Positions 12,888 to 33,375 of a stretch of DNA of 64,000 nt are shown here, one piece after another. Source of the DNA: Escherichia coli (GTDB lineage: Bacteria > Pseudomonadota > Gammaproteobacteria > Enterobacterales > Enterobacteriaceae). The translations under genes and the position numbers were made by a program. The first letter of the stretch is position 1. Each line of letters starts with the position of its first letter. The DNA lies in NCBI RefSeq assembly GCF_003018235.1, contig NZ_CP027437.1, one strand, 5' to 3'. A model generated the notes under the pieces. The model worked only from the letters and a program-made list of their open reading frames with translations. It was not told where the DNA came from and did not search any database.

Positions 12888-14262
12888 CAGCCACACTGTT
12901 GACGACGGACTTTATCTGTTCGTCGGTGCCTGCACGGTTTCAGCCCCCGGAAGGGCTGCGTTCGGGGCTTCACCCCGTTCCCCGGCCTCAGGGTCGCGAT
13001 GCGTTTTCTGCTGCATGACCGTTCAGAACCTCCGTTGATACTCGTCACTCATTACCGTTCGGGCCTTCGGGTGTCATGCCCTACTATGCCCTCTGCTGAC
13101 TCCTGTCCGCCGGTCAGCGCCCCTTACGGTACGCTCAGTTCTGGATACAGAACGACGGACAGGCCTCCCGGGGTAAGTTCAGCTGCCTTCACCACACACC
13201 TGTCCGATTTACCACCCCGGTTCTTGATGGTTATGGCCTTCGCAATTCTTTGCTTGCTCCGCCAACCGGGTAGGCCTCGTATCGGATTTCTGTTCGTCAG
13301 GTCATGGATTTGCTTCACGCTTCCTTCAGACCCCGCTTCACGACGACGCCCTTGCGCTTCGCTAGTCCTTCGCTACCATCAGGCTGGACAGGGGACTTTC
13401 ACCCCCGAGCTGCTGAACATGCCCGGCACACAAAGAAAGCCCCTCCGGAGAGGGGCTGGTATGCGCAATGTTCCATCATCTGCATGGTGCCGGGTGCCTC
13501 CCGGTGAGTCCGGCATCAGCATCCGAACCCGCAATATTGCCCAAATAAAGCTAAAGGATGATTGTGACCTGCTGATTTGCCCCTCCGCACAGGGGGATTC
13601 ACCATGCAGACATTTTCTTAGCAAAATCACTGCGTGCCAGGCAACTCCCAACTACATAAAATGTGGAGTTTGTGGCATTTATGCACATAACTCACAGGAA
13701 TTATCTTAAAAAAGCTGACAGGGCTTCCCCGGCAACGTAATACCATCATTCCCTGAAATGACATCCCCGTATTATCGACAGGCTCAAAAAGGAGCCAGTC
13801 ATCTGAGGATGACTGGAAAAAGGAAAGATAAAAAATTATTCATCATACAACCTTCGTTGCAAGGGAGAATCCTGCGGTGCAGCAACATACAAAAACATAA
13901 GCCAACTAACAATATGCAGGCATAGCATTTTCGGATTTTGTTATATGGCACGGCAACTGAATGCTCACCTGATATACAGTCCGGTATAAAATTGCAAAAA
14001 AAAACGCCAGTTAAGGCGGCATTTAAACAGATAACAGGATTTTTTCGTAATTTCAACAACGTCGGGGTGGCGCATCGTCAGTCCCTGTCAGGAAGTACCA
14101 GCACTCCCACCAACAATGCACCACCCCATTCAGCGTTGTAAAACACGGCACAGGAACTATCAATGTTTTCTGTTACAGTTCGGGAAAAACGATAAACACG
14201 CCACGGGCTCTTTTTGCTGTGAATTAAAAACGGTCCTGAAAGCCGGCTCATCATTTTTTACT

Positions 14263-14339
14263 GGACCGTCACCGGGGACTCGAACCCCGCACTCTCAACA
14301 TAAAAGGTTGATGCTCTTTCCTGATGAGCTAGTGACGGC
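14263..14339 (-). tRNA. phage-encoded tRNA, anticodon read as UUU (Lys-type loop CUUUUAU); identity uncertain
   Basis: 77-nt cloverleaf with 7-bp acceptor stem CCGTCAC/GTGACGG, T-arm CGGGG-TTCGAGT-CCCCG, CCA end. Confidence 0.55.
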
Positions 14340-14340
14340 A

Positions 14341-14416
14341 TGGTGGCCCTTGCTGGATTTGAACCAGCGACCTGGCGGTTATGAGCCGCTCGCTCTCACC
14401 ACTGAGCTAAAGGGCC
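14341..14416 (-). tRNA. phage-encoded tRNA with CAU anticodon, ileX/ileZ-like (tRNA-Ile2 or Met)
   Basis: 76 nt GGCCCTTTAGCTCAGTGG...CTCATAA...GGTTCAAATCC...CCACCA; close to E. coli ileX as I recall it. Confidence 0.8.
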
Positions 14417-19661: not shown

Positions 19662-20490
19662 GACGATGCCCTCCGTTGATATTCAGGAGACGGTGAATAT
19701 GAAAATTAGCCTTATCCGCCAAACGAATACGTTCAGCCTGCAAGTTAAGAAGTGTTTCTACCAGAACCTGATGCGCCTGCGGATCCGAAAGAGTTACCTT
19801 GCGCAGAGCACGTAGTGCAGTTGTTACATAACTGAGTTTATGTAAGTCTTCATCATTCAGACGAGTGAGGGCTGGGACAGTAGCCATGATGGCAGCCTCC
19901 TTGATCGGTGAAATACTTCCACCACCGGAAACGCCAATTTCGCTGGTGGTGAACTGAACGGGGTTGGCGTAACCGGTGATCAAGGAAACCGGCGCATCTT
20001 TCGATGCCCCCGCCCAGCCCACCATAACTTTGATGTGAGCAAATGCGGACGATAAAAAAGACGCTGGCGCGTCATATATCGCCTTGATCAATTCCAGGAC
20101 GCCAATCCCGGCACCCGCTTTATAAGGTGCCTGAACAGTGTAACGTCCCGGAATGGCAGAATCAATGTGCTGGTGGTCCTTCACACTCAACAAAATCACG
20201 CCTGAATTTCCACAAAGGACTAAAGCACTCATGCGGGTAGTCTTTGCGAAGATAGATAACGCGCTGTGTTTCTGGCTCCCAACGAATAACATGGACATAA
20301 AGCCCTCTTCCGTCACGAAACCAGCGGTTAAGTTCCTGCACAACTCGCCCCCCACAGTCAGGTAAAGTTCTCTGTGGTTACTTACAGCCAGGTGATTTGG
20401 TAATCTGCATTCATGCCGTAACAACAGGTGTTCAGCGACGCTGACCACCAGCTGTTGCGACAAACGGTTATTTGCCGTTAAACTGTTCAT
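19654..20490 (-). CDS. hypothetical protein (278 aa)
   Basis: long coherent ORF in early-right operon; family not recognised. Confidence 0.5.
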   Translation of the reverse strand: MNSLTANNRLSQQLVVSVAEHLLLRHECRLPNHLAVSNHRELYLTVGGELCRNLTAGFVTEEGFMSMLFVGSQKHSALSIFAKTTRMSALVLCGNSGVILLSVKDHQHIDSAIPGRYTVQAPYKAGAGIGVLELIKAIYDAPASFLSSAFAHIKVMVGWAGASKDAPVSLITGYANPVQFTTSEIGVSGGGSISPIKEAAIMATVPALTRLNDEDLHKLSYVTTALRALRKVTLSDPQAHQVLVETLLNLQAERIRLADKANFHIHRLLNINGGHRHA

Positions 20491-21038: not shown

Positions 21039-21060
21039 GGCTATCTCCTTAAAACTGTGG

Positions 21061-21309
21061 TTACTTTTCATCTGATGAGTCTTTAATCTTTTGAAAAATA
21101 TCTGGACGTAATTTTTCTTTTGATACGCCAGTGGTCTTTTCAATGAAAATCGAGAGCTTTGCAGGGGGACGCTTTTCTCTGTTCAACCAGTTCCAGACAT
21201 GTTGTTGCTTTACTAAATGACCGCTGCTGGCTGTGAGCTTCCGAGCCAATTCTGATTGACCACCAGCCAGAGCGATTGCCTCCGATAAGGCTAATTGCTC
21301 AGGTGTCAT
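21061..21309 (-). CDS. Cro-like HTH repressor (YdaS family)
   Basis: LAGGQSELARKL...VKQQHVWNW...EKTTGVSKEKLRPDIF; AGGAGA RBS; divergent from cI. Confidence 0.7.
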   Translation of the reverse strand: MTPEQLALSEAIALAGGQSELARKLTASSGHLVKQQHVWNWLNREKRPPAKLSIFIEKTTGVSKEKLRPDIFQKIKDSSDEK

Positions 21310-21324
21310 AGCTTTCTCCTTTTT

Positions 21325-21420
21325 CGGTAGTTAAGTTGTTACGAGATGCAAGAATACAACATTAACAACTTTTATCACAACTTTTAGGTGTTGGAAAGCT
21401 AAAACATAAAGTTGTAACCT
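21325..21420. promoter_or_regulatory. OR-like operator/promoter region between cro and cI
   Basis: repeated AAGTTGT / ACAACTT half-sites and ACAACTTTTAGGTGTTGG motif. Confidence 0.5.
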
Positions 21421-21444
21421 CATCAGAAAAGAGAGGGATATGTT

Positions 21445-22131
21445 GTGAAAACACTGGCAGAACGATTAAAGATAGGTAGAGAGAAAGCTGGCATGAGCCA
21501 AGCTCAACTAGCTGAAAAAATTGGACTTTCACAACAATCTGTAGCCAAAATAGAGAATGGAGAAACTCTACAACCGCGCAAAATTAAAGAAATTGCAAAA
21601 ATTTTAGGTGTATCACAAAAGTGGTTACAACTTGGTATTGAAGACAACGCATCCATACCTGATCTTGTTGTAAAAGAAGCAGAAAGCACCGCATTAGACC
21701 CCGATATTTTCGTAAACATTCCTGTTTTAGATGTCGAGTTATCGGCTGGTAACGGATGTCTGGCTGAAATAGTTGAATCAGCTATTGACTGGTTTCCGTT
21801 AAGAAGAGCAGATTTGAGAAAATCTGGCGTATGTGCATCTAATGCCAAGATCGTAAAAATCTGGGGGAACAGTTTATTACCGGTTCTCAATAATGGAGAT
21901 CTTGTTGCCGTTGATATTTCTCAAACCGTTCCTATTCGTGATGGCGATCTTTATGCCGTACGAGATGGTGTATTGCTAAGGGTTAAAATACTTATCAACT
22001 TACCTGACGGTGGCTTGATTCTTAGAAGCTTCAACAAAGATGAGTACCCAGATGAAATACTCACCTTTGAGGATAGACGAGCCAGAATTCATGTTATAGG
22101 TAGGGTATTCTGGTCATCGCGAACTTGGTAA
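21445..22131 (+). CDS. CI-type repressor (HTH_XRE plus S24 LexA-like peptidase domain)
   Basis: N-terminal HTH MSQAQLAEKIGLSQQSVAKIENGE; C-terminal GNSLLP ... RVK; GTG start after GAGAGGG RBS. Confidence 0.85.
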   Translation: MKTLAERLKIGREKAGMSQAQLAEKIGLSQQSVAKIENGETLQPRKIKEIAKILGVSQKWLQLGIEDNASIPDLVVKEAESTALDPDIFVNIPVLDVELSAGNGCLAEIVESAIDWFPLRRADLRKSGVCASNAKIVKIWGNSLLPVLNNGDLVAVDISQTVPIRDGDLYAVRDGVLLRVKILINLPDGGLILRSFNKDEYPDEILTFEDRRARIHVIGRVFWSSRTW

Positions 22132-22653
22132 TGCGTCGAAAAGCATTTCTTCAGAAATAATTTTAAGTTTTGCACCATTATCATCCCGATAAGATATAGC
22201 CTTTTCGATCTTCCTTCCGTGACTTGAGAATTTCCAATCACGGGAGGAAAGCGTCCCTATTACTAAAAAATCCAACTTTTGAGTAATTCCACTACTGATG
22301 TTCCCACCAGCATTTTTAATCAAATTTTCAACTACGGCTCTCTTTCCTGCAACAAAAGTGCCTGTAAGACAATAGGTTTTACCCTCTAACTCTATCGAAG
22401 CCCCTACATCAATAGGCAGCCTGGTCGCCAAACCATCCACCACCCCACTTTCCAAGTCACATCCAGTGAAGTCTACTAATGCCTTATGTAGAGTTAAACT
22501 CTCATCTTCAGTAATAACACCATCTTTAAGAATTTCCTTTACAAGTGCATAAAGGTTTTTTCCTGGGTAGTTGTTCCTCAAAGCTCCATTTTGCTCAAGC
22601 CACCAATTAAGATATCTTATTTCTTCTTGAGTTAAGTTTCGATCAGCAATTAA
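22114..22653 (-). CDS. in-frame continuation after TGA: two TerB-like motif copies plus C-terminal BRCT-like domain (no ATG; TTG at 22581)
   Basis: frame open from the TGA at 22654-22656 to 22114; LIADRNLTQEEIRYL and ILKDGVITEDESL motifs; BRCT-like GKTYCLTGTF...DFLVIG. Confidence 0.45.
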   Translation of the reverse strand, partial: LIADRNLTQEEIRYLNWWLEQNGALRNNYPGKNLYALVKEILKDGVITEDESLTLHKALVDFTGCDLESGVVDGLATRLPIDVGASIELEGKTYCLTGTFVAGKRAVVENLIKNAGGNISSGITQKLDFLVIGTLSSRDWKFSSHGRKIEKAISYRDDNGAKLKIISEEMLFDALPSSR

Positions 22654-23004
22654 TCATTTACATAGTCCATTAAGTAAATGGACATCTACATCTTTGGAGT
22701 AAAAATCAATTTCAGGGATATCAAGAATTTCTCTCTGTATTTGAAGAAGGCTATTTTTAAGGTCATCACGTTCTTCTGATGTGATTATTCCATCCGCAAG
22801 AATATCCGATACCCGTGCTGATAGACTTTTTATAACTCCATTATTGATAATCTGCTTTGCTTCAAGTAACCATGTATCTAAGTAAAGAACCTCCTCTTCA
22901 CGGACAACTCCATCTGCAATGATTCCATCAATGATGCTAATCAAGTTAGCAAATAACTTGTCCCGGTTCTGTGTGTAATTAAAAGCGTAAAGCGCGTCTT
23001 CCAT
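22654..23004 (-). CDS. TerB-like repeat protein (116 aa), ends at in-frame TGA
   Basis: ATG 23004 with AGGAGG RBS; two copies of I-[IL]-A-D-G-[VI]-x-x-E-E motif. Confidence 0.6.
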   Translation of the reverse strand: MEDALYAFNYTQNRDKLFANLISIIDGIIADGVVREEEVLYLDTWLLEAKQIINNGVIKSLSARVSDILADGIITSEERDDLKNSLLQIQREILDIPEIDFYSKDVDVHLLNGLCK

Positions 23005-23060
23005 ACAACCTCCTTTTTTTGATAATCCTTGCACTCCTTGACTACACGTTCAAACTACAT

Positions 23061-23115
23061 AAAGTTGTTGACAACATTCAAAACAACAACCAGATTACAA
23101 CTTAAAGGTGTTGAG
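23061..23115. promoter_or_regulatory. OL-like operator cluster
   Basis: AAAGTTGTTGACAACATTC palindrome-like site and ACAACTTAAAGGTGTTGAG, matching the OR motif. Confidence 0.45.
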
Positions 23116-23184
23116 ATGACGAACAGGCAGGACGCCCACGAAGTAGCCGTCTGGGGCATATGAAGTCCAGGATGATTCGTTAGC

Positions 23185-23215
23185 AACAAAAAAGCGCCCT
23201 ATAGGACGCTTCGCT
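23185..23215 (-). terminator. intrinsic terminator after periplasmic-protein gene
   Basis: minus-strand AGCGTCCTATAGGGCGCT followed by TTTTTT. Confidence 0.45.
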
Positions 23216-23237
23216 CTTTAACAATCTGGATGACTTA

Positions 23238-23750
23238 TTACTCAGATTTGAACTTTGGTTCTGGCAAAAGAGGAGGAGTTGAGTCCTCGAATCGTAGCCA
23301 GTGCTCCCAGATATCGTGGGATTGTAATTCCAGAAGACCAATTTGACGTGATGCAACTGCAGTGCCAGCTATAGTTCCTCCTGCATAATCAACCTGGACG
23401 GACTTTGACGCTTTCTCAATTAATTCTGTCCAAGCTTCACTTTCCGCGTTAAAAGAAGCAGTTAATTCCTGCAGACGCTGTGGATCATCCTTGTTGTCTT
23501 GTTTCAAACGATTCAGGGCGGCCACCGAATACTTATTCTTAACCCAGCTAACCTGAGCTAACTGAACTCTCTGACAAGCGTCCATATCAGTAGTTGTTTC
23601 CTGAGGCATATCAAAGCAGGAAATAAAAAAAGTCTCAACACCATCATTTAGACTACTGCTCGGCTGGTTCAAAGCATCAGAAGCATTGGATGCTATCGGT
23701 ATTATCAGTGCTACCGACAGAATCAAACGTTTAACATAAATCGCTCCCAT
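23238..23750 (-). CDS. secreted/periplasmic protein (signal peptide; possibly DUF1311/LprI-like)
   Basis: ATG 23750 with GAGGGG RBS; N-terminal signal peptide; two Cys. Confidence 0.5.
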   Translation of the reverse strand: MGAIYVKRLILSVALIIPIASNASDALNQPSSSLNDGVETFFISCFDMPQETTTDMDACQRVQLAQVSWVKNKYSVAALNRLKQDNKDDPQRLQELTASFNAESEAWTELIEKASKSVQVDYAGGTIAGTAVASRQIGLLELQSHDIWEHWLRFEDSTPPLLPEPKFKSE

Positions 23751-24218
23751 TTAATTATCCCCTCTAAGAACAGAGTCATCCAGATTATCTGAATCCTTGT
23801 TGTTGGGGAATAACCAGGCCCACCTCGCCTGATGTGGCTAAAAGCAGGCACATAACAGCTAAGTATTTTCAACCAGAGAGAATCCTTAGCGTTGTGGTGA
23901 ATGCGGCTCAGCGCACGCGGGCTAAGGTTGAGGCTGACAGTCGACCTTCTGTGGATACCCACCCGCCTGGTGTGCAACCTTCGCCAGGCACCGGGAGGCA
24001 CCCGGCACCACAACTTTATGCTGTGTATAGTCCTGGCGGTACCAGTTTGTACCCTTGCTTCCGGCTGGTACCGCTCTTTTTACAAAACAGAGAAGAGCAT
24101 CACCGGACGACGGGCTCATAACCCAATCCACCCGGGCGGCTGCCACCGCAGGTGTTCTTCTCTGTTTTGTGGAGAAACCAACCGACCTTGCAGGGTCGAT
24201 ATGATGAGGAGCAGCAAA

Positions 24219-24581
24219 ATGGCTAGCGAACGCAGTACCAACGTGCAGGAATTTATCGTAGAACTGGACGGCGGCGTATTTGAAACTAAACTCGGCGCAG
24301 TTCTCAGTGAAGTCGCTTCCGGTGTGATGAACACGAAAAACAAAGGTAAAGTCTCGGTCAATCTGGACATCGAACCGTTTGATGAGAACCGTGTAAAAAT
24401 CAAACACAAACTCTCATATGTTCGCCCGACTAACCGCGGGAAAATTTCTGAAGAAGACACCACCGAAACGCCGATGTATGTCAATCGCGGTGGTCGCCTG
24501 ACTATTCTGCAGGAAGACCAGGGACAGTTACTGACTCTTGCCGGTGAACCTGACGGAAAACTCCGTGCAGCAGGTCGTTAA
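24219..24581 (+). CDS. YfdP-like protein (120 aa)
   Basis: AGGAG RBS; first gene of a yfdPQRST-like block as in CPS-53. Confidence 0.55.
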   Translation: MASERSTNVQEFIVELDGGVFETKLGAVLSEVASGVMNTKNKGKVSVNLDIEPFDENRVKIKHKLSYVRPTNRGKISEEDTTETPMYVNRGGRLTILQEDQGQLLTLAGEPDGKLRAAGR

Positions 24582-24646
24582 TATCGTTTTTAATAAACTG
24601 ATTATTTATCTCATCACTGAATATCTTTATATAGTGAGGACTTATT

Positions 24647-25471
24647 ATGTCTCAGAACTTAGACGCAACCGCAATTAATCAAATCCATGCTCTTATTTCT
24701 GCTCAGGGTGTTAATGAAATTATCAGTAAGATTGGTGCCGATGCCGTGGCATTGCCTGAGAATTTCCGCATTCATGATCTGGAAAAATTTAATTTAAATC
24801 GCTTCCGTTTCCGTGGTGCGCTTTCCACTGCCAGCATTGATGATTTTACCCGTTATTCTAAAGATCTTGCAGATGAAGGCACCCGCTGCTTTATCGATGC
24901 CGATAATATGCGAGCCGTCAGTGTGCTTAACCTGGGTACTATTGATGAACCAGGTCACGCAGATAACACCGCCACTCTCAAACTGAAAAAGACAGCACCG
25001 TTCTCTGCCCTGTTGTCTGTTAACGGCGAGCGTAACTCCCAGAAGTCACTGGCAGAATGGATTGAAGACTGGGCCGACTACCTTGTGGGCTTTGATGCTA
25101 ATGGTGACGCCATTCAGGCAACAAAAGCGGCTGCGGCAGTCCGTAAAATAACGATTGAAGCAAACCAGACCGCTGATTTTGAAGATAATGACTTCAGCGG
25201 CAAACGCTCCCTGATGGAATCTGTCGAAGCGAAGACCAAAGACATTATGCCAGTGGCATTTGAATTTAAATGCGTTCCGTTTGAAGGCCTGAAAGAACGT
25301 CCGTTTAAATTACGCCTCAGCATTATCACTGGCGATCGTCCTGTACTGGTTCTGCGCATTATTCAGCTGGAAGCAGTGCAGGAAGAAATGGCTAACGAAT
25401 TTCGTGATCTGCTTGTTGAGAAATTCAAAGACAGCAAAGTAGAAACCTTTATTGGTACTTTTACCGCCTGA
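24647..25471 (+). CDS. YfdQ-like protein (DUF2303)
   Basis: 274 aa; order and size match yfdQ. Confidence 0.65.
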
Positions 25472-25598
25472 TTTCCTTACTGCAAATGCCCCTGCGGGGG
25501 CATTTATGGAAACATAATTGACTCAATAATCGCCTGATGGCGAGGGTTTTCTTTAACCAAAATTCTGCGCGGTGCAGCGCATATACGTGGAGAACAAA

Positions 25599-26135
25599 AT
25601 GTCATTTATTAAAACTTTTTCCGGGAAGCATTTTTATTATGACAAGATAAATAAAGACGACATCGTGATTAACGATATCGCGGTTTCCCTTTCAAATATC
25701 TGTCGCTTTGCAGGACATCTTTCACACTTCTACAGTGTCGCCCAGCATGCAGTGCTTTGCAGCCAACTGGTGCCGCAGGAATTTGCTTTTGAAGCGTTAA
25801 TGCATGATGCAACAGAAACGTATTGCCAGGACATCCCCGCACCACTGAAACGACTTCTTCCTGACTATAAACGGATGGAAGAAAAAATAGACGCCGTAAT
25901 CCGTGAGAAATACGGGTTACCTCCTGTTATGAGCACGCCAGTGAAATATGCCGATCTCATTATGCTGGCAACCGAACGCCGCGATCTCGGACTTGATGAT
26001 GGCTCTTTCTGGCCTGTATTGGAAGGTATCCCGGCAACAGAGATGTTCAAAGTTATTCCACTGTCGCCAGGTCATGCCTACGGGATGTTTATGGAACGTT
26101 TTAACGAGTTATCGGAGTTACGCAAATGCGCATGA
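25599..26135 (+). CDS. HD-domain 5'-deoxynucleotidase (YfdR-like)
   Basis: HD-domain residues (H...HD...D); 178 aa from ATG 25599. Confidence 0.7.
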   Translation: MSFIKTFSGKHFYYDKINKDDIVINDIAVSLSNICRFAGHLSHFYSVAQHAVLCSQLVPQEFAFEALMHDATETYCQDIPAPLKRLLPDYKRMEEKIDAVIREKYGLPPVMSTPVKYADLIMLATERRDLGLDDGSFWPVLEGIPATEMFKVIPLSPGHAYGMFMERFNELSELRKCA

Positions 26136-26488
26136 ATGTTTTCGAAATGGAAGGGTTTCTTCGCGGGAAATGTGTACCGCGAGATCTGAAAGTGAACGAA
26201 ACAAATGCTGAGTACCTAGTACGTAAATTCGACGCGCTTGAAGCTAAATGTGCGGCACTGGAAAACAAAATAATACCAGTGTCAGCTGAATTGCCACCTG
26301 CAAATGAAAGTGTTCTGTTATTTGATGCTAACGGAGAAGGCTGGCTGATTGGCTGGCGTTCTCTCTGGTACACCTGGGGACAAAAGGAAACCGGAGAATG
26401 GCAGTGGACATTTCAGGTCGGGGATCTTGAAAACGTCAATATCACTCACTGGGCAGTAATACCAAAGGCACCGGAGGCAGGGGCATAA
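26126..26488 (+). CDS. YfdS-like protein
   Basis: 120 aa; overlaps yfdR-like stop. Confidence 0.55.
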   Translation: MRMNVFEMEGFLRGKCVPRDLKVNETNAEYLVRKFDALEAKCAALENKIIPVSAELPPANESVLLFDANGEGWLIGWRSLWYTWGQKETGEWQWTFQVGDLENVNITHWAVIPKAPEAGA

Positions 26489-27108
26489 TGACCACATTTA
26501 CCGACAAAGAACTGATTAAAGAAATCAAAGAGCGCATAGGCAGTCTGGATGTGCGAGACAATATTGAGCGCCGTGCTTATGAAATTGCTTTGGTATCGCT
26601 GGAAGCAGAACCGGTGGCATGGCTGCATTCAGACAATGGCTTAGGTATTCCGGCAATAACACGGAGTAAAAACATTGCTGACAGTTGGTTATCAAAGGGC
26701 TGGTATGTTCAGCCGCTATATATAGCCAAGCCAGTGCCGATGGTGCCAGATGTTCGTCCGTCTTTAAATAATGGCATAGTCGGCTTTGATGAAGGCTGGA
26801 ACGCCTGCCGCGCCGCCATGCTTCATGGTGCCGAACCTGTAAGCCAGACTTACAAGTTGAACGAGCTGTCGGGCAACTCTCCGGTAACTCCGGATGGTTG
26901 GATAAGCTGTAGTGAGCGAATGCCGGACGATAAACAGTATGTTTGGTGTTGGGGTAAGTCTTACGGCTGGACTGAGTGCGATACCTTCGAAGGGTATTAC
27001 GATTGGTCGAGAAACAAATGGTGGGCAGTTACTGACGATGGGGAAGAACCGGCATCGAAAGTAACCCACTGGATGCCGCTACCGGAGCCACCGCAGGAGG
27101 TGAAGTAA
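26488..27108 (+). CDS. YfdT-like protein (Trp-rich C-terminal domain)
   Basis: 206 aa; ATGA-type coupling with neighbours. Confidence 0.5.
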   Translation: MTTFTDKELIKEIKERIGSLDVRDNIERRAYEIALVSLEAEPVAWLHSDNGLGIPAITRSKNIADSWLSKGWYVQPLYIAKPVPMVPDVRPSLNNGIVGFDEGWNACRAAMLHGAEPVSQTYKLNELSGNSPVTPDGWISCSERMPDDKQYVWCWGKSYGWTECDTFEGYYDWSRNKWWAVTDDGEEPASKVTHWMPLPEPPQEVK

Positions 27109-27302
27109 TGAACAACTTAATGACAACTAAACAAGTCGCCGACTTCTGTGGCGTTTCAGTATCGACCGTTCTTCGATGGAACAGCGTAAACAGGAGAACT
27201 GGCCAGAAATACAGGCCTGAGTTTCCAGATCCTGATATTAAATCCTGCCCAAATAAATGGGCATCACACAAGATTTACAGATTTGCGGGAGTGATTGATT
27301 AA
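27108..27302 (+). CDS. AlpA-family HTH regulator / excisionase
   Basis: 64 aa; TTKQVADFCGVSVSTVLRW HTH; next to integrase module. Confidence 0.7.
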   Translation: MNNLMTTKQVADFCGVSVSTVLRWNSVNRRTGQKYRPEFPDPDIKSCPNKWASHKIYRFAGVID

Positions 27303-27584
27303 TATGTATTAGCTTAGATGTGAGCTGACACATCTATGATTAGATGCCAAACCTAATCTGAGCGTCCACTCTTTACCAAGAGCGGACGTTACCAATGACC
27401 ATATGACATGAATCGATAAGATCAAAACATTATCGCCAAGAAATGTCATACCATTGATACAAATAAAATTGATTACCCCCTTACTCTTGTTGAAAAGTTA
27501 GTCGTAGAGTACCTATCGCAATGTAATCAGCTTTAATCATTTGAAAATTACTCCTTAAAAATTAGCTTTTATATACTGAACAAA

Positions 27585-28304
27585 TTAAATCTCTGTTTCT
27601 TTTCCTGTTCGGCTCAACCAATACTCCATTGTTTGAGTATGAATCTTTTCAGCGTATATTTTATCAATTAATTTATCTCGTTTTTCTTTAATGACTTTAC
27701 GCAGTGAATCATATAACATAAAAAAACGTTCATCGTCTTCCTCATTATTACCGTAATTTATTTGATTGAGTTCTGAAAAAATATGATAATACCTTTTTTT
27801 CTTGGTCCCCGGCAATATTAAAACCAAGCCACATTGATCATATTCGAATTCACCTTTATGGGCAGCAAAGTTATGTCTAACATTCATAATAGAATCATGT
27901 AAATCTCTGTATTTTTCTGGCACATGCTTTCTCTGCAATGTGAATCGACGCCCTTTCGCCTCTGTAAAACACTTACCGTAAGTAACAACTTTTGATATAA
28001 ATAAAGACTTTAATATTAGATTCTTTTCTAAATCAGGATAAATAAAGTGTTGTTCTCTATTAATGTTATTACAAATGTTTTTTATTATATTCTCCCAACC
28101 AATAACATTCCGAAGATCTTTATCCAGCAACTGTAAGGCCACATATTGTTCTACAAAGCGGCCTTTTAAAGGTATTCGTGGTAATATTACACCTTTCTGC
28201 TTATAAACTCTTTCTATCGTATTATCTGGATATTGGATCTTCCTTATTTCTATTCCGTCTTCTTCTGATACCCTTACTAATGGTTCATTTTTTAACTTTG
28301 ACAT
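27585..28304 (-). CDS. hypothetical protein, AT-rich moron between xis and int
   Basis: 239 aa, K/E/N-rich; AGAGGG RBS; sits in a low-GC island 27300-28590. Confidence 0.55.
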   Translation of the reverse strand: MSKLKNEPLVRVSEEDGIEIRKIQYPDNTIERVYKQKGVILPRIPLKGRFVEQYVALQLLDKDLRNVIGWENIIKNICNNINREQHFIYPDLEKNLILKSLFISKVVTYGKCFTEAKGRRFTLQRKHVPEKYRDLHDSIMNVRHNFAAHKGEFEYDQCGLVLILPGTKKKRYYHIFSELNQINYGNNEEDDERFFMLYDSLRKVIKEKRDKLIDKIYAEKIHTQTMEYWLSRTGKETEI

Positions 28305-28589: not shown

Positions 28590-29813
28590 TCAGTTTGAAT
28601 CAGAGATAGTACAATTAACAATCGATTCAACCCTCTTCCACCATGCCAGGTAAGCTTTACGCTGTTCTTCTAGATAATCGCTCTTATCATAAACTTGCCA
28701 TACCCCTGGCAGCTTATGACCAAGCATAATTTCTGCGATATGAGGCGCAGTAAGATCAGAAAAATTTGTTCGTGCTGTCCGTCTCAAGTCATGAAGAGAC
28801 CAATGAGGGAATTGATATCCTAAACGCCGCCACGCGTACTGCATTAAATTGTAAGGCAGCGACTGTAATGATGTCCTACCGACGGGTTCCCTGCTTCCTT
28901 CCTTAGTAAAAAGCATATCGGAACCGTTGTTCATAGAGATAACGTATTTTATAAGCTCTTCAACCGGTTCAATAATGGGCCGCTTTAGCGGTTTGCCTGT
29001 TATGTCCCCTGTCTTATGTCGTTCAGGTGGTACAGTCCATACCTTATTTATGAAATCAAAATCACCCACCCTAGCAGTAATTAGCTCCGAACTACGGCAA
29101 CCAAAATGCAGTAATAGTTTAATGAAGGCCCGGTATTTGGGAACCATTCTAGAGCCATCGATCGCAGCATAAAGAATTTTAATTTCATCGTGTGTCAGAA
29201 ACCGTTTCTTCTGACCTTTACGGATATCCATATCTTTACCCGTGATATCCGACAGCGGGCGAGTTTCAATAAGCTTTCTCTTATACGCCCAGACATGGGC
29301 CTGCTTTGCGTTAATTAGCAATCGGTCTGCTATTGCTGGAGTCTTAGTGCTAAGAGGCTCCAAGACTTCTAACCAATCATGCAATGTAGCTGCATCGTGA
29401 GGGATATTCCCGATTTTAGAGAACAGGTGCAGCTCAAACGAGCGGAGTATCTGTTCAGAACCCTTTTTATTTTTTACACAATATGCTTCATACCAGGCAC
29501 GGATCACAGACTCTACCGTCATGGCTTCAGTAGCTTTTCGTTTTTCAGCCTGCTTGACCAATCGTGGATTACGGTTTGACTCGAGTTCACCACGGAGACG
29601 GATAACTTCTTCTCTGGCCTCTTTTAATCCAGTTGCCGGGTAAGTTCCGATATCAAGACGCTCACCTTTCCCTGCCCATTGATAACGATATTGGAACACT
29701 ACGCGACCTTTCGGTGATACTCTGACAGACAGACCATCACGATCGGATTTAACCAAAACCTTATCACGTTCCTTTCCAACGACTGAACGCAACCACGCAT
29801 CAGACAGCGCCAT
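28590..29813 (-). CDS. tyrosine-type phage integrase (P4-like, N-terminal arm-binding domain)
   Basis: 407 aa; C-terminal catalytic region with R...H-x-x-R...Y; prophage-chromosome junction nearby. Confidence 0.9.
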   Translation of the reverse strand: MALSDAWLRSVVGKERDKVLVKSDRDGLSVRVSPKGRVVFQYRYQWAGKGERLDIGTYPATGLKEAREEVIRLRGELESNRNPRLVKQAEKRKATEAMTVESVIRAWYEAYCVKNKKGSEQILRSFELHLFSKIGNIPHDAATLHDWLEVLEPLSTKTPAIADRLLINAKQAHVWAYKRKLIETRPLSDITGKDMDIRKGQKKRFLTHDEIKILYAAIDGSRMVPKYRAFIKLLLHFGCRSSELITARVGDFDFINKVWTVPPERHKTGDITGKPLKRPIIEPVEELIKYVISMNNGSDMLFTKEGSREPVGRTSLQSLPYNLMQYAWRRLGYQFPHWSLHDLRRTARTNFSDLTAPHIAEIMLGHKLPGVWQVYDKSDYLEEQRKAYLAWWKRVESIVNCTISDSN

Positions 29814-33052: not shown

Positions 33053-33139
33053 GCGAAGGTGGCGGAATTGGTAGACGCGCTAGCTTCAGGTGTTAGTGTC
33101 CTTACGGACGTGGGGGTTCAAGTCCCCCCCCTCGCACCA
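33053..33139 (+). tRNA. leuV: tRNA-Leu (CAG)
   Basis: 87-nt GCGAAGGTGGCGGAATTGGTAGACGCG...CTCGCACCA; first of three identical copies (copy naming tentative). Confidence 0.9.
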
Positions 33140-33167
33140 AAAACCACGTTGATATTGCTCGCACTGG

Positions 33168-33254
33168 GCGAAGGTGGCGGAATTGGTAGACGCGCTAGCT
33201 TCAGGTGTTAGTGTCCTTACGGACGTGGGGGTTCAAGTCCCCCCCCTCGCACCA
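33168..33254 (+). tRNA. leuP: tRNA-Leu (CAG)
   Basis: identical second copy. Confidence 0.9.
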
Positions 33255-33288
33255 AACGAGGCGATATCAAAAAAAGTAAGATGACTGT

Positions 33289-33375
33289 GCGAAGGTGGCG
33301 GAATTGGTAGACGCGCTAGCTTCAGGTGTTAGTGTCCTTACGGACGTGGGGGTTCAAGTCCCCCCCCTCGCACCA
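33289..33375 (+). tRNA. leuQ: tRNA-Leu (CAG)
   Basis: identical third copy. Confidence 0.9.

Follow-up and report, generated by a model that had tools for sequence, protein, structure and literature searches.

We have analyzed a block of five genes related to yfdP, yfdQ, yfdR, yfdS and yfdT of the CPS-53 prophage of Escherichia coli K-12. The block lies at positions 24219-27108 of a 64,000-nucleotide stretch of E. coli DNA (contig NZ_CP027437.1 of assembly GCF_003018235.1), and it is this whole stretch that we call the window. Five consecutive open reading frames (ORFs) on the + strand fill the interval exactly, and there are Shine-Dalgarno sequences 5' of all the genes. The first gene, yfdP (24219-24581), encodes 120 amino acids with a precomputed match to Pfam PF27127, and yfdQ (24647-25471) encodes a protein of 274 amino acids that matches Pfam PF10065 (DUF2303) over residues 7-272, with a score of 309.7 bits against a cut-off of 26.6 (2e-92). 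The third gene, yfdR (25599-26135), encodes 178 amino acids when read from its ATG, the ORF list extending the start to a GTG at 25572. The product of yfdS (26126-26488) has 120 amino acids and a weakly DUF551-like C-terminus, scoring 20.7 bits where the Pfam cut-off is 22. The fifth gene (26488-27108) encodes 206 amino acids, with a YfdT-like N-terminus (residues 1-42) followed by a C-terminal DUF551 domain.

The CPS-53 genes (b2359-b2363) were translated from NC_000913.3 as the K-12 reference, and the proteins were compared by BLASTP. Amino-acid identity is 92.5% for YfdP (over 120/120 residues), 99.3% for YfdQ (274/274), 97.8% for YfdR (178/178) and 99.2% for YfdS (120/120). Synonymous and non-synonymous codon differences from K-12 stand at 11:2 in yfdQ, 17:4 in yfdR, 9:1 in yfdS and 12:9 in yfdP. 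The annotation of colinear E. coli prophages in RefSeq agrees with these gene identities, and on the alignments, whose agreement goes well past chance, the identification of yfdP, yfdQ, yfdR and yfdS is near-certain. This part of the block is already described; thousands of E. coli genomes carry its annotation, and a dedicated functional paper deals with it.

The fifth gene is a different matter. The DNA of CPS-53 is colinear with the window from 24200 to 26612 at 95.7% identity, and the colinearity stops inside this gene. Residues 1-42 of the protein alone align with the 101-amino-acid K-12 YfdT, at 88% identity, and residues 137-203 form a DUF551 domain (PF04448; 65.3 bits against a cut-off of 22, 9e-18) that is absent from K-12 YfdT. 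By its domain composition the gene is a DUF551 chimera and not an ortholog of yfdT. Phage cdtI has the same 206-amino-acid gene (orf35). The DUF551 domain is portable, occurring also in a variant of Ea22 (PMC10834534), and we found no functional study of it in the literature.

The boundaries of the block were mapped in 80 IMG/VR loci with a YfdQ sharing 99-100% identity with that of the window, a sample that is useless for assessing diversity and was used for breakpoints. On the left, colinearity ends at about 24030 in 40 of the 80 loci and at 23770-23820 in 38. On the right it ends at 26600-26610, the K-12 breakpoint within the fifth gene, in 36 loci, at the end of yfdR (26100-26130) in 11, at the end of yfdS (about 26470) in 9 and inside yfdS (26220-26290) in 7. 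The breakpoints therefore cluster at gene ends and at 26600-26610, and the latter position indicates that the fifth gene consists of a conserved head of 40 codons joined to interchangeable tails.

Rather than belonging to CPS-53, the block forms the early-left operon of a lambdoid E. coli prophage of the cdtI/mEp460 type, integrated beside yjjG. We make this assignment because the block sits between a cI-like repressor and an excisionase. The repressor gene (21445-22131, +) encodes a protein with HTH_3 (4e-15) and Peptidase_S24 (5.9e-15) domains in Pfam. The excisionase gene xis (27108-27302, +) encodes 64 amino acids with an HTH_17/MerR-type N-terminus, matching phrog_1553 at 2.3e-35; BLASTP gave no match of this protein to TorI. 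A tyrosine integrase of 407 amino acids (28590-29813, -), carrying the Pfam domains Phage_integrase, Arm-DNA-bind_3 and Phage_int_M, lies beside yjjG and is 22% identical to IntS by BLASTP. The order is thus cI-like repressor, yfdP, yfdQ, yfdR, yfdS, DUF551 gene, xis, a cargo gene and int. This has the layout of a lambdoid early-left region, in that the genes lie between a cI-type repressor and xis/int, on the strand of cI, with operator-like repeats shared with the cro/cI region. The same order from cI to int is found in the viable phage cdtI (orf41 to orf32) and in the prophages of E. coli O103 ML775 and strain 755. In those two colinear prophages int is followed by yjjG, rimI, holD, rsmC and leucine tRNA genes, and the same trio of tRNA-Leu genes occurs in the window, at 33053-33375.

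The original prediction had described a CPS-53-like yfdPQRST block, recognized by the order and sizes of its genes. Order and lengths hold for yfdP, yfdQ, yfdR and yfdS, and the pairwise comparison with K-12 that it had proposed gives high rather than low identity, 92.5-99.3%, for these four proteins. They do not hold for the fifth gene (206 as against 101 amino acids). Likewise the resemblance to CPS-53 is real for the gene block but fails for the element that carries it, where the integrase, the excisionase and the site beside yjjG all differ.

Of 5426 complete E. coli genomes, 4008 match some part of the block and 471 match 80% or more of it. A collection of phage genomes gave matches in 442 records, and in 32 of these no less than 80% of the block is covered. 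Phages 2H10, Ayreon, cdtI and SfIV and the Shiga toxin (Stx) 2c phages carry it at 95-96% identity, and many Stx-converting phages match as well. Judged by its sequence, the block is functional in real phages.

Upstream of the block there is a candidate region for the leftward promoter and operator (PL/OL) at 23038-23115 (+), containing the operator-like repeats ACAAC-N7-GTTG, ACATAAAGTTGT and ACAACATTnAnAAC together with a promoter-like site, TTGACT-16-TAAAGT, at 23038-23065. Three operator-like motifs of the cro/cI spacer (21356-21415) recur at 23050-23113. Comparing the two sites, ATCACAACTTTTAGGTGTTG in one corresponds to ATTACAACTTAAAGGTGTTG in the other, and ACATAAAGTTGT is identical at both. 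These repeats are probably the rightward operator (OR) and OL of the prophage's immunity cassette, and 23038-23115 may be the PL/OL equivalent that drives the block. The immunity cassette (21043-24034) differs from those of cdtI and the most closely related E. coli prophages.

Two further features of this region are on the - strand. At 22114-23034 adjacent ORFs of 155 and 126 amino acids match the C- and N-terminal halves of the 296-amino-acid phrog_3989, with BRCT/ligase-like similarity and a weak match to PADLOC PDC-S48 in the C-terminal half. Together they probably represent one gene, broken by a frameshift or stop codon, that was inserted between cI and the early-left operon. At 23238-23750 there is a gene for a 170-amino-acid protein with an apparent signal-peptide-like N-terminus, a weak match to LprI (a lysozyme inhibitor) and a match to phrog_7681. 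The gene is served by a strong terminator of its own (23191-23212) and runs antisense inside what we presume to be the early-left leader; probably it is a moron, an insert whose expression is independent.

The 5' leader of yfdP (24034-24200, +) appears to be highly structured. An inverted repeat at 24082-24106 and 24146-24170 can form a 25-bp stem, and on folding the segment 24030-24225 we obtained a minimum free energy of -83.8 kcal/mol (z = -5.4), with none of 200 shuffled sequences equally stable. Across 49 sequence variants conservation of the leader is 95-99%, and one-sided changes retain pairing. No pairs exhibit compensatory covariation, the 25 variants compared for this being too similar to one another. 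A structured leader is therefore plausible as a folding model, and it could be a site for RNase III cleavage or attenuation. It is common to cdtI and many E. coli prophages; K-12, whose homology with the window starts at 24200, lacks it. Overlapping its beginning is an STnc100-like RNA element (23861-24083, +), matching Rfam RF02076 along the full-length model with 44.5 bits (E 3.6e-7), below the gathering score of 47. A strong copy of STnc100 (134 bits) is located in the late region of the window, at 13426-13637 (-). The prophage small-RNA context of this PasD-related family has been described (bioRxiv 10.64898/2026.05.13.724894).

Within the block, the 127-bp spacer between yfdQ and yfdR contains two terminator-like hairpins (25483-25553, +). 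The first, found by direct reading of the sequence, is GCCCC-TGCG-GGGGC followed by ATTTAT, and the second, found in a terminator scan, is TCGCC-TGAT-GGCGA followed by GGGTTTTCTT. They possibly mark a sub-operon boundary. In K-12, yfdPQ are regarded as one operon (PMC9181523). Beyond the spacer the genes are tightly packed: yfdR and yfdS overlap by 10 nucleotides, and yfdS and the fifth gene, like the fifth gene and xis, have stop and start codons overlapping as ATGA. Since these overlaps run through to xis, the functional unit extends to 27302, past the right limit of the block at 27108. Regulation by SrsR (YgfI) as in K-12 was considered and set aside: TCAGATTTTGC boxes occur 29 times in the window, where 25.5 are expected, and none lies upstream of yfdP.

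YfdR contains the H...HD...D motif of HD-domain phosphohydrolases, with H50, H69-D70 and D119 aligned with those of Atu1052. It matches the structure of Atu1052 (PDB 2gz4) along the length of the protein with E 2e-13, and PHROG 318, deoxyribonucleoside 5' monophosphate phosphatase, at 2.6e-109. Its ortholog is named 5'-deoxynucleotidase in RefSeq. Four substitutions relative to K-12 (A74T, N151K, A156S and D170E) avoid H50, H69, D70 and D119, and are conservative or peripheral. YfdR falls below the cut-offs for YfbR, scoring 24.0 bits against 25.9 for Pfam PF12917 and 20.5 against 122 for NCBIfam NF003009. By these profiles it is a distant relative of YfbR and not a YfbR equivalog. The 5'-deoxynucleoside monophosphate (dNMP) phosphatase activity of K-12 YfdR has much lower affinity than that of YfbR, according to the account of Zimmerman et al. 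given in PMC4776307.

K-12 YfdR has a second activity, which was uncovered genetically. yfdQRST was isolated as a multicopy suppressor of hda-185 overinitiation, with yfdQ and yfdR plus one of yfdS and yfdT as the minimal set; overexpression of that set inhibits initiation at oriC in K-12, and extracts inhibited oriC replication in vitro (PMC4776307). Purified K-12 YfdR binds domain I of DnaA, for which DnaA Phe46 is important, and moderately inhibits binding of DnaA by DiaA and DnaB (PMC4776307); the YfdR-DnaA result is restated in PMC12122000. The authors proposed a role in host shut-off like that of lambda P in the ancestral phage (PMC4776307). The window YfdR is expected to bind DnaA likewise, given its 97.8% identity to the K-12 protein. 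Documented activities in the block are limited to YfdR, as a weak deoxynucleotidase and a DnaA-binding protein. The earlier call of an HD-domain 5'-deoxynucleotidase is thus borne out by the intact motif, the PHROG match and the RefSeq name. Its companion statement that the function of the other genes is unknown is right for the biochemistry of YfdP, YfdQ and the DUF551 proteins, but phenotypes of yfdQ and yfdS exist in the literature.

The most widely conserved part of the block is yfdP-yfdQ. We compared nine phage loci, those of cdtI, ArgO145, the Vibrio phages 34E29.1, vB_VpP_1 and 1F273_PE002, Thalassomonas BA3, Halomonas H4907, Xanthomonas Tabio and Acinetobacter Mystique. Every one of the nine encodes a YfdP homolog (hmmsearch E 1e-15 to 1e-57) immediately upstream of YfdQ and in the same orientation; in vB_VpP_1 one small ORF lies between the two. 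YfdQ identity ranges from 26 to 59% across phages, temperate and other, whose hosts are Enterobacteria, Vibrio, Thalassomonas, Halomonas, Xanthomonas and Acinetobacter. No homologs of YfdR, YfdS or YfdT were found within about 4 kb of the pair in the eight divergent loci. This adjacency of yfdP and yfdQ across phages is new in this analysis. Previously yfdP, yfdQ and yfbR-like genes were noted as common in early-left operons (LLS, ST64B, phiNP and ArgO145), yfdP and yfdQ being without assigned function (PMC12315714), and overproduction of YfdQ was found to activate another prophage (bioRxiv 10.1101/413146).

In three of the loci the pair lies in or beside a recombination module. Vibrio 34E29.1 encodes an Erf-like annealing protein, a RecE/YqaJ-like exonuclease, a DnaQ-like exonuclease, YfdP, YfdQ and single-strand DNA-binding protein (SSB); Thalassomonas BA3 has the same Erf-RecE-YfdP-YfdQ order; and Stx phage ArgO145 has Gam-RecT-Exo-SSB-YfdP-YfdQ. 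As these modules are complete, yfdP-yfdQ rides with them rather than replacing them. Neither protein has sequence or fold similarity to the Rad52, Redbeta, Erf, RecT and Sak4 or YqaJ families.

A sequence search identified a solved homolog of YfdQ, PDB 9o7m ('YfdQ Protein'; E 1.2e-44), a single entry with 36 chains, the sequence of which shares 98.8% identity with a protein from Xanthomonas phage MET23-P3. We found no paper describing it in the literature. AlphaFold2 models were obtained with a mean confidence (pLDDT) of 75 for YfdQ and 85 for YfdP, the latter comprising two helices and a three-stranded sheet. Neither model has a significant fold relative in PDB libraries (to April 2026, without 9o7m), the best Foldseek E value for YfdQ being 0.047.

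Taken as a whole, we think that the block is probably, although by no means surely, best explained as the early-left operon of a cdtI-like prophage in which YfdR, acting on DnaA, takes over the host in the early lytic phase. Bound at the operator repeats near 23050-23115, the cI-like repressor would silence the operon in the lysogen. On induction, transcription would run through the long structured leader into yfdPQ and then into yfdR, yfdS, the DUF551 gene and xis. The stop and start codons of the last four genes overlap, and their translation may be coupled through these overlaps. As in K-12, YfdR would bind domain I of DnaA in a manner dependent upon Phe46, competing with DiaA and DnaB, and together with YfdQ and a partner of the YfdS or YfdT type it would inhibit initiation at oriC, as on overexpression in K-12. 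The benefit to the phage would be to shut down host initiation, possibly freeing DnaB, during lytic growth, analogous to the action of lambda P. On this reading the five genes do not form one machine, with yfdP-yfdQ an ancient obligate pair and the fifth gene a DUF551 fusion shuffled by recombination.

Our confidence in this mechanism is moderate because the functional data all come from multicopy overexpression in K-12 (PMC4776307), and several observations weigh against it. Deletion of yfdQRST affects neither initiation nor resistance to hydroxyurea, and the authors allow that the effect on replication may be an artefact of overexpression; the inhibition of DiaA and DnaB binding is only 'moderate', and no stable complex of YfdQ, YfdS or YfdT with YfdR or DnaA was seen (PMC4776307). 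The K-12 YfdT used in the published assays differs from the fifth protein of the window beyond residue 42. The case for PL-type expression is built from repeats and position. No N/nut or put element was identified and no N-like ORF recognized, and transcription from the candidate promoter to yfdR would have to cross the - strand gene at 23238-23750 and terminator-like hairpins. Finally, yfdPQ are kept without yfdR in distant phages, so action on DnaA cannot account for what is most conserved in the block.

Other readings center on the pair. Tentatively, and in the expectation that it may well prove wrong, yfdP-yfdQ might be an older obligate pair representing a new class of phage factor for DNA metabolism or host takeover, such as a large oligomeric scaffold that acts on proteins of replication or recombination, with the YfdR-DnaA effect a lineage-specific read-out. 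Alternatively the yfdP-yfdQ core could assist the phage in recombination, replication or repair by acting on DNA or on recombination proteins, with YfdR-DnaA as a separate enterobacterial addition; we consider this possible but some way short of probable, and it is compatible with the DnaA-directed takeover that we favor, since the two are not mutually exclusive. It is consistent with the location of the pair in or beside recombination modules in independent lineages (34E29.1, BA3 and ArgO145), with its position after an endonuclease and a Ref nuclease in vB_VpP_1, and with its occupancy of the place of the Rec module in the window prophage, where that interval holds no recognizable Rec genes. 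The 36 chains in the structure of the YfdQ homolog suggest a large homo-oligomer, and a yfdQ deletion is reported to be sensitive to methyl methanesulfonate (MMS), as cited in PMC4776307. The same lack of similarity to known recombination families described above applies here.

A main function in remodeling nucleotide pools, the idea of the original prediction, in which YfdR hydrolyzes dNMPs like the pre-early 5'-deoxyribonucleotidase of T5 and its neighbors are passengers, is suggested by the intact HD motif, the match to the dNMP phosphatases of PHROG 318/8467 (2.6e-109), the RefSeq name of the ortholog and the weak Pfam YfbR-like match (24.0 bits). We regard it as unlikely. YfdR is under the cut-offs of both YfbR models, a temperate phage that spares the host DNA has no obvious use for the destruction of dNMPs, and hda-185 suppression also requires YfdQ plus one of YfdS and YfdT (PMC4776307). 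It is distinctly improbable that the block is a module of lysogenic conversion, whose low expression from the prophage raises host tolerance to oxidative, acid or alkylation stress. Deletions of CPS-53, yfdQ and yfdS are more sensitive to H2O2, and that of yfdQ to MMS, in the work of Wang 2010 and Rooney 2009 as cited in PMC4776307 and PMC9181523, and the stationary-phase regulator SrsR activates K-12 yfdPQ by way of boxes located between yfdO and yfdP (PMC9181523). Those boxes, however, sit in a spacer specific to K-12, whose homology with the window begins 19 nucleotides before the yfdP ATG. The location 3' of repressor-type operators and the overlaps that link the last genes to xis argue instead for expression in the lytic phase, and the presence of parts of the block in 4008/5426 E. 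coli genomes is explained equally well by the abundance of lambdoid prophages. Lambdoid early-left operons commonly carry genes for anti-defense or superinfection exclusion, and a cassette of this kind, comprising all or part of the block, would fit with the DUF551 gene as a mosaic hot spot and with variable cargo on both sides. This we judge very improbable: YfdP, YfdQ, YfdR and YfdS are highly conserved and not diversifying, and we found no publication tying the five proteins to defense or counter-defense.

Membership of a known defense system was examined separately and rejected, the five proteins matching no PADLOC-DB v2 model at E values up to 0.01. The slot between xis and int is variable. 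At 27585-28304 (-) the window has a gene for a 239-amino-acid phrog_8440 protein, where phage cdtI and the O103 prophage encode a protein of 710 amino acids, annotated in the latter as a CHAT-domain protein; the slot is possibly a defense hot spot. In the early-right region a C4 antisense RNA (82 bits) and the Hfq-binding small RNA isrK (64 bits) lie side by side at 19942-20130 (-), placed as in phage cdtI.

In the late region group II intron RNA domains are found within 9609-13347 (-), namely Rfam domains D1-D4 at 13062-13347 and domain V/VI at 9609-9681. A copy of IS100 (10115-12069, 99.2% match) appears to interrupt these domains. The region is downstream of the Q antiterminator and of phage tRNA-Lys and tRNA-Met genes (14262-14416), and at that position a related O170:H18 prophage has stx2h. 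The possibility that the window element is itself an Stx phage, raised by that equivalent late-region position, was rejected, as tblastn finds no stx in the window.

Recognition of the block matters little in itself, as the cassette was already known. What changes is its label: the element is not CPS-53 but a lambdoid prophage like cdtI, whose early-left operon the block forms, and the fifth gene is a DUF551 chimera. The YfdR-DnaA interaction is a candidate phage-encoded brake on the initiation of host replication, and viable phages that carry the block include cdtI, Ayreon and 2H10. The sole lead that we consider worth following is yfdP-yfdQ, a broadly conserved phage pair without fold relatives that is linked to recombination modules.

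The differences from CPS-53 (KplE1) extend through the element. CPS-53 is a 10-kb remnant, whereas in the window element genes for replication, Q, lysis and the terminase continue to the left edge of the window. CPS-53 is integrated at argW with IntS and TorI; the window element is beside yjjG with another integrase and excisionase. Upstream of yfdP, CPS-53 has the yfdO/yfdP spacer with its SrsR boxes, in contrast to the structured leader behind an intact immunity region in the window. The closest likeness is to phage cdtI, with which 24034-27360 is colinear at 94.7% from the leader through xis, including the 206-amino-acid DUF551 gene, and with which the integrase is shared. The early-left region of cdtI comprises orf41 (cI), orf39-orf34, orf33 and orf32 (int), and phages 2H10, Ayreon and the Stx2c-converting phages are akin. 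cdtI differs in having another immunity cassette in place of 21043-24034 and in the slot between xis and int, where its 710-amino-acid protein replaces the 239-amino-acid phrog_8440 protein.

At the level of the single genes, the fifth gene resembles the Ea22 family of the exo-xis region of lambda and Stx phages, which likewise combines a conserved N-terminal segment with interchangeable C-terminal domains that include DUF551, and which lies in the early-left operon just before xis (PMC10834534). We detected no similarity to the N-terminal or coiled-coil region of Ea22, and the likeness is one of organization only. YfdR shares its metal motif with the YfbR-type 5'-deoxynucleotidases, E. coli YfbR and Atu1052, and is a weak match to the Pfam YfbR-like family. 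In its target K-12 YfdR belongs with lambda P, SirA of Bacillus subtilis, Dps and the competition of DiaA/HobA, acting like them on DnaA and lowering initiation at oriC (PMC4776307). It differs from all of these in being an unrelated HD phosphohydrolase fold that in vivo needs YfdQ together with YfdS or YfdT. SirA contacts the residue equivalent to DnaA Phe46, the one targeted by K-12 YfdR (PMC4776307).

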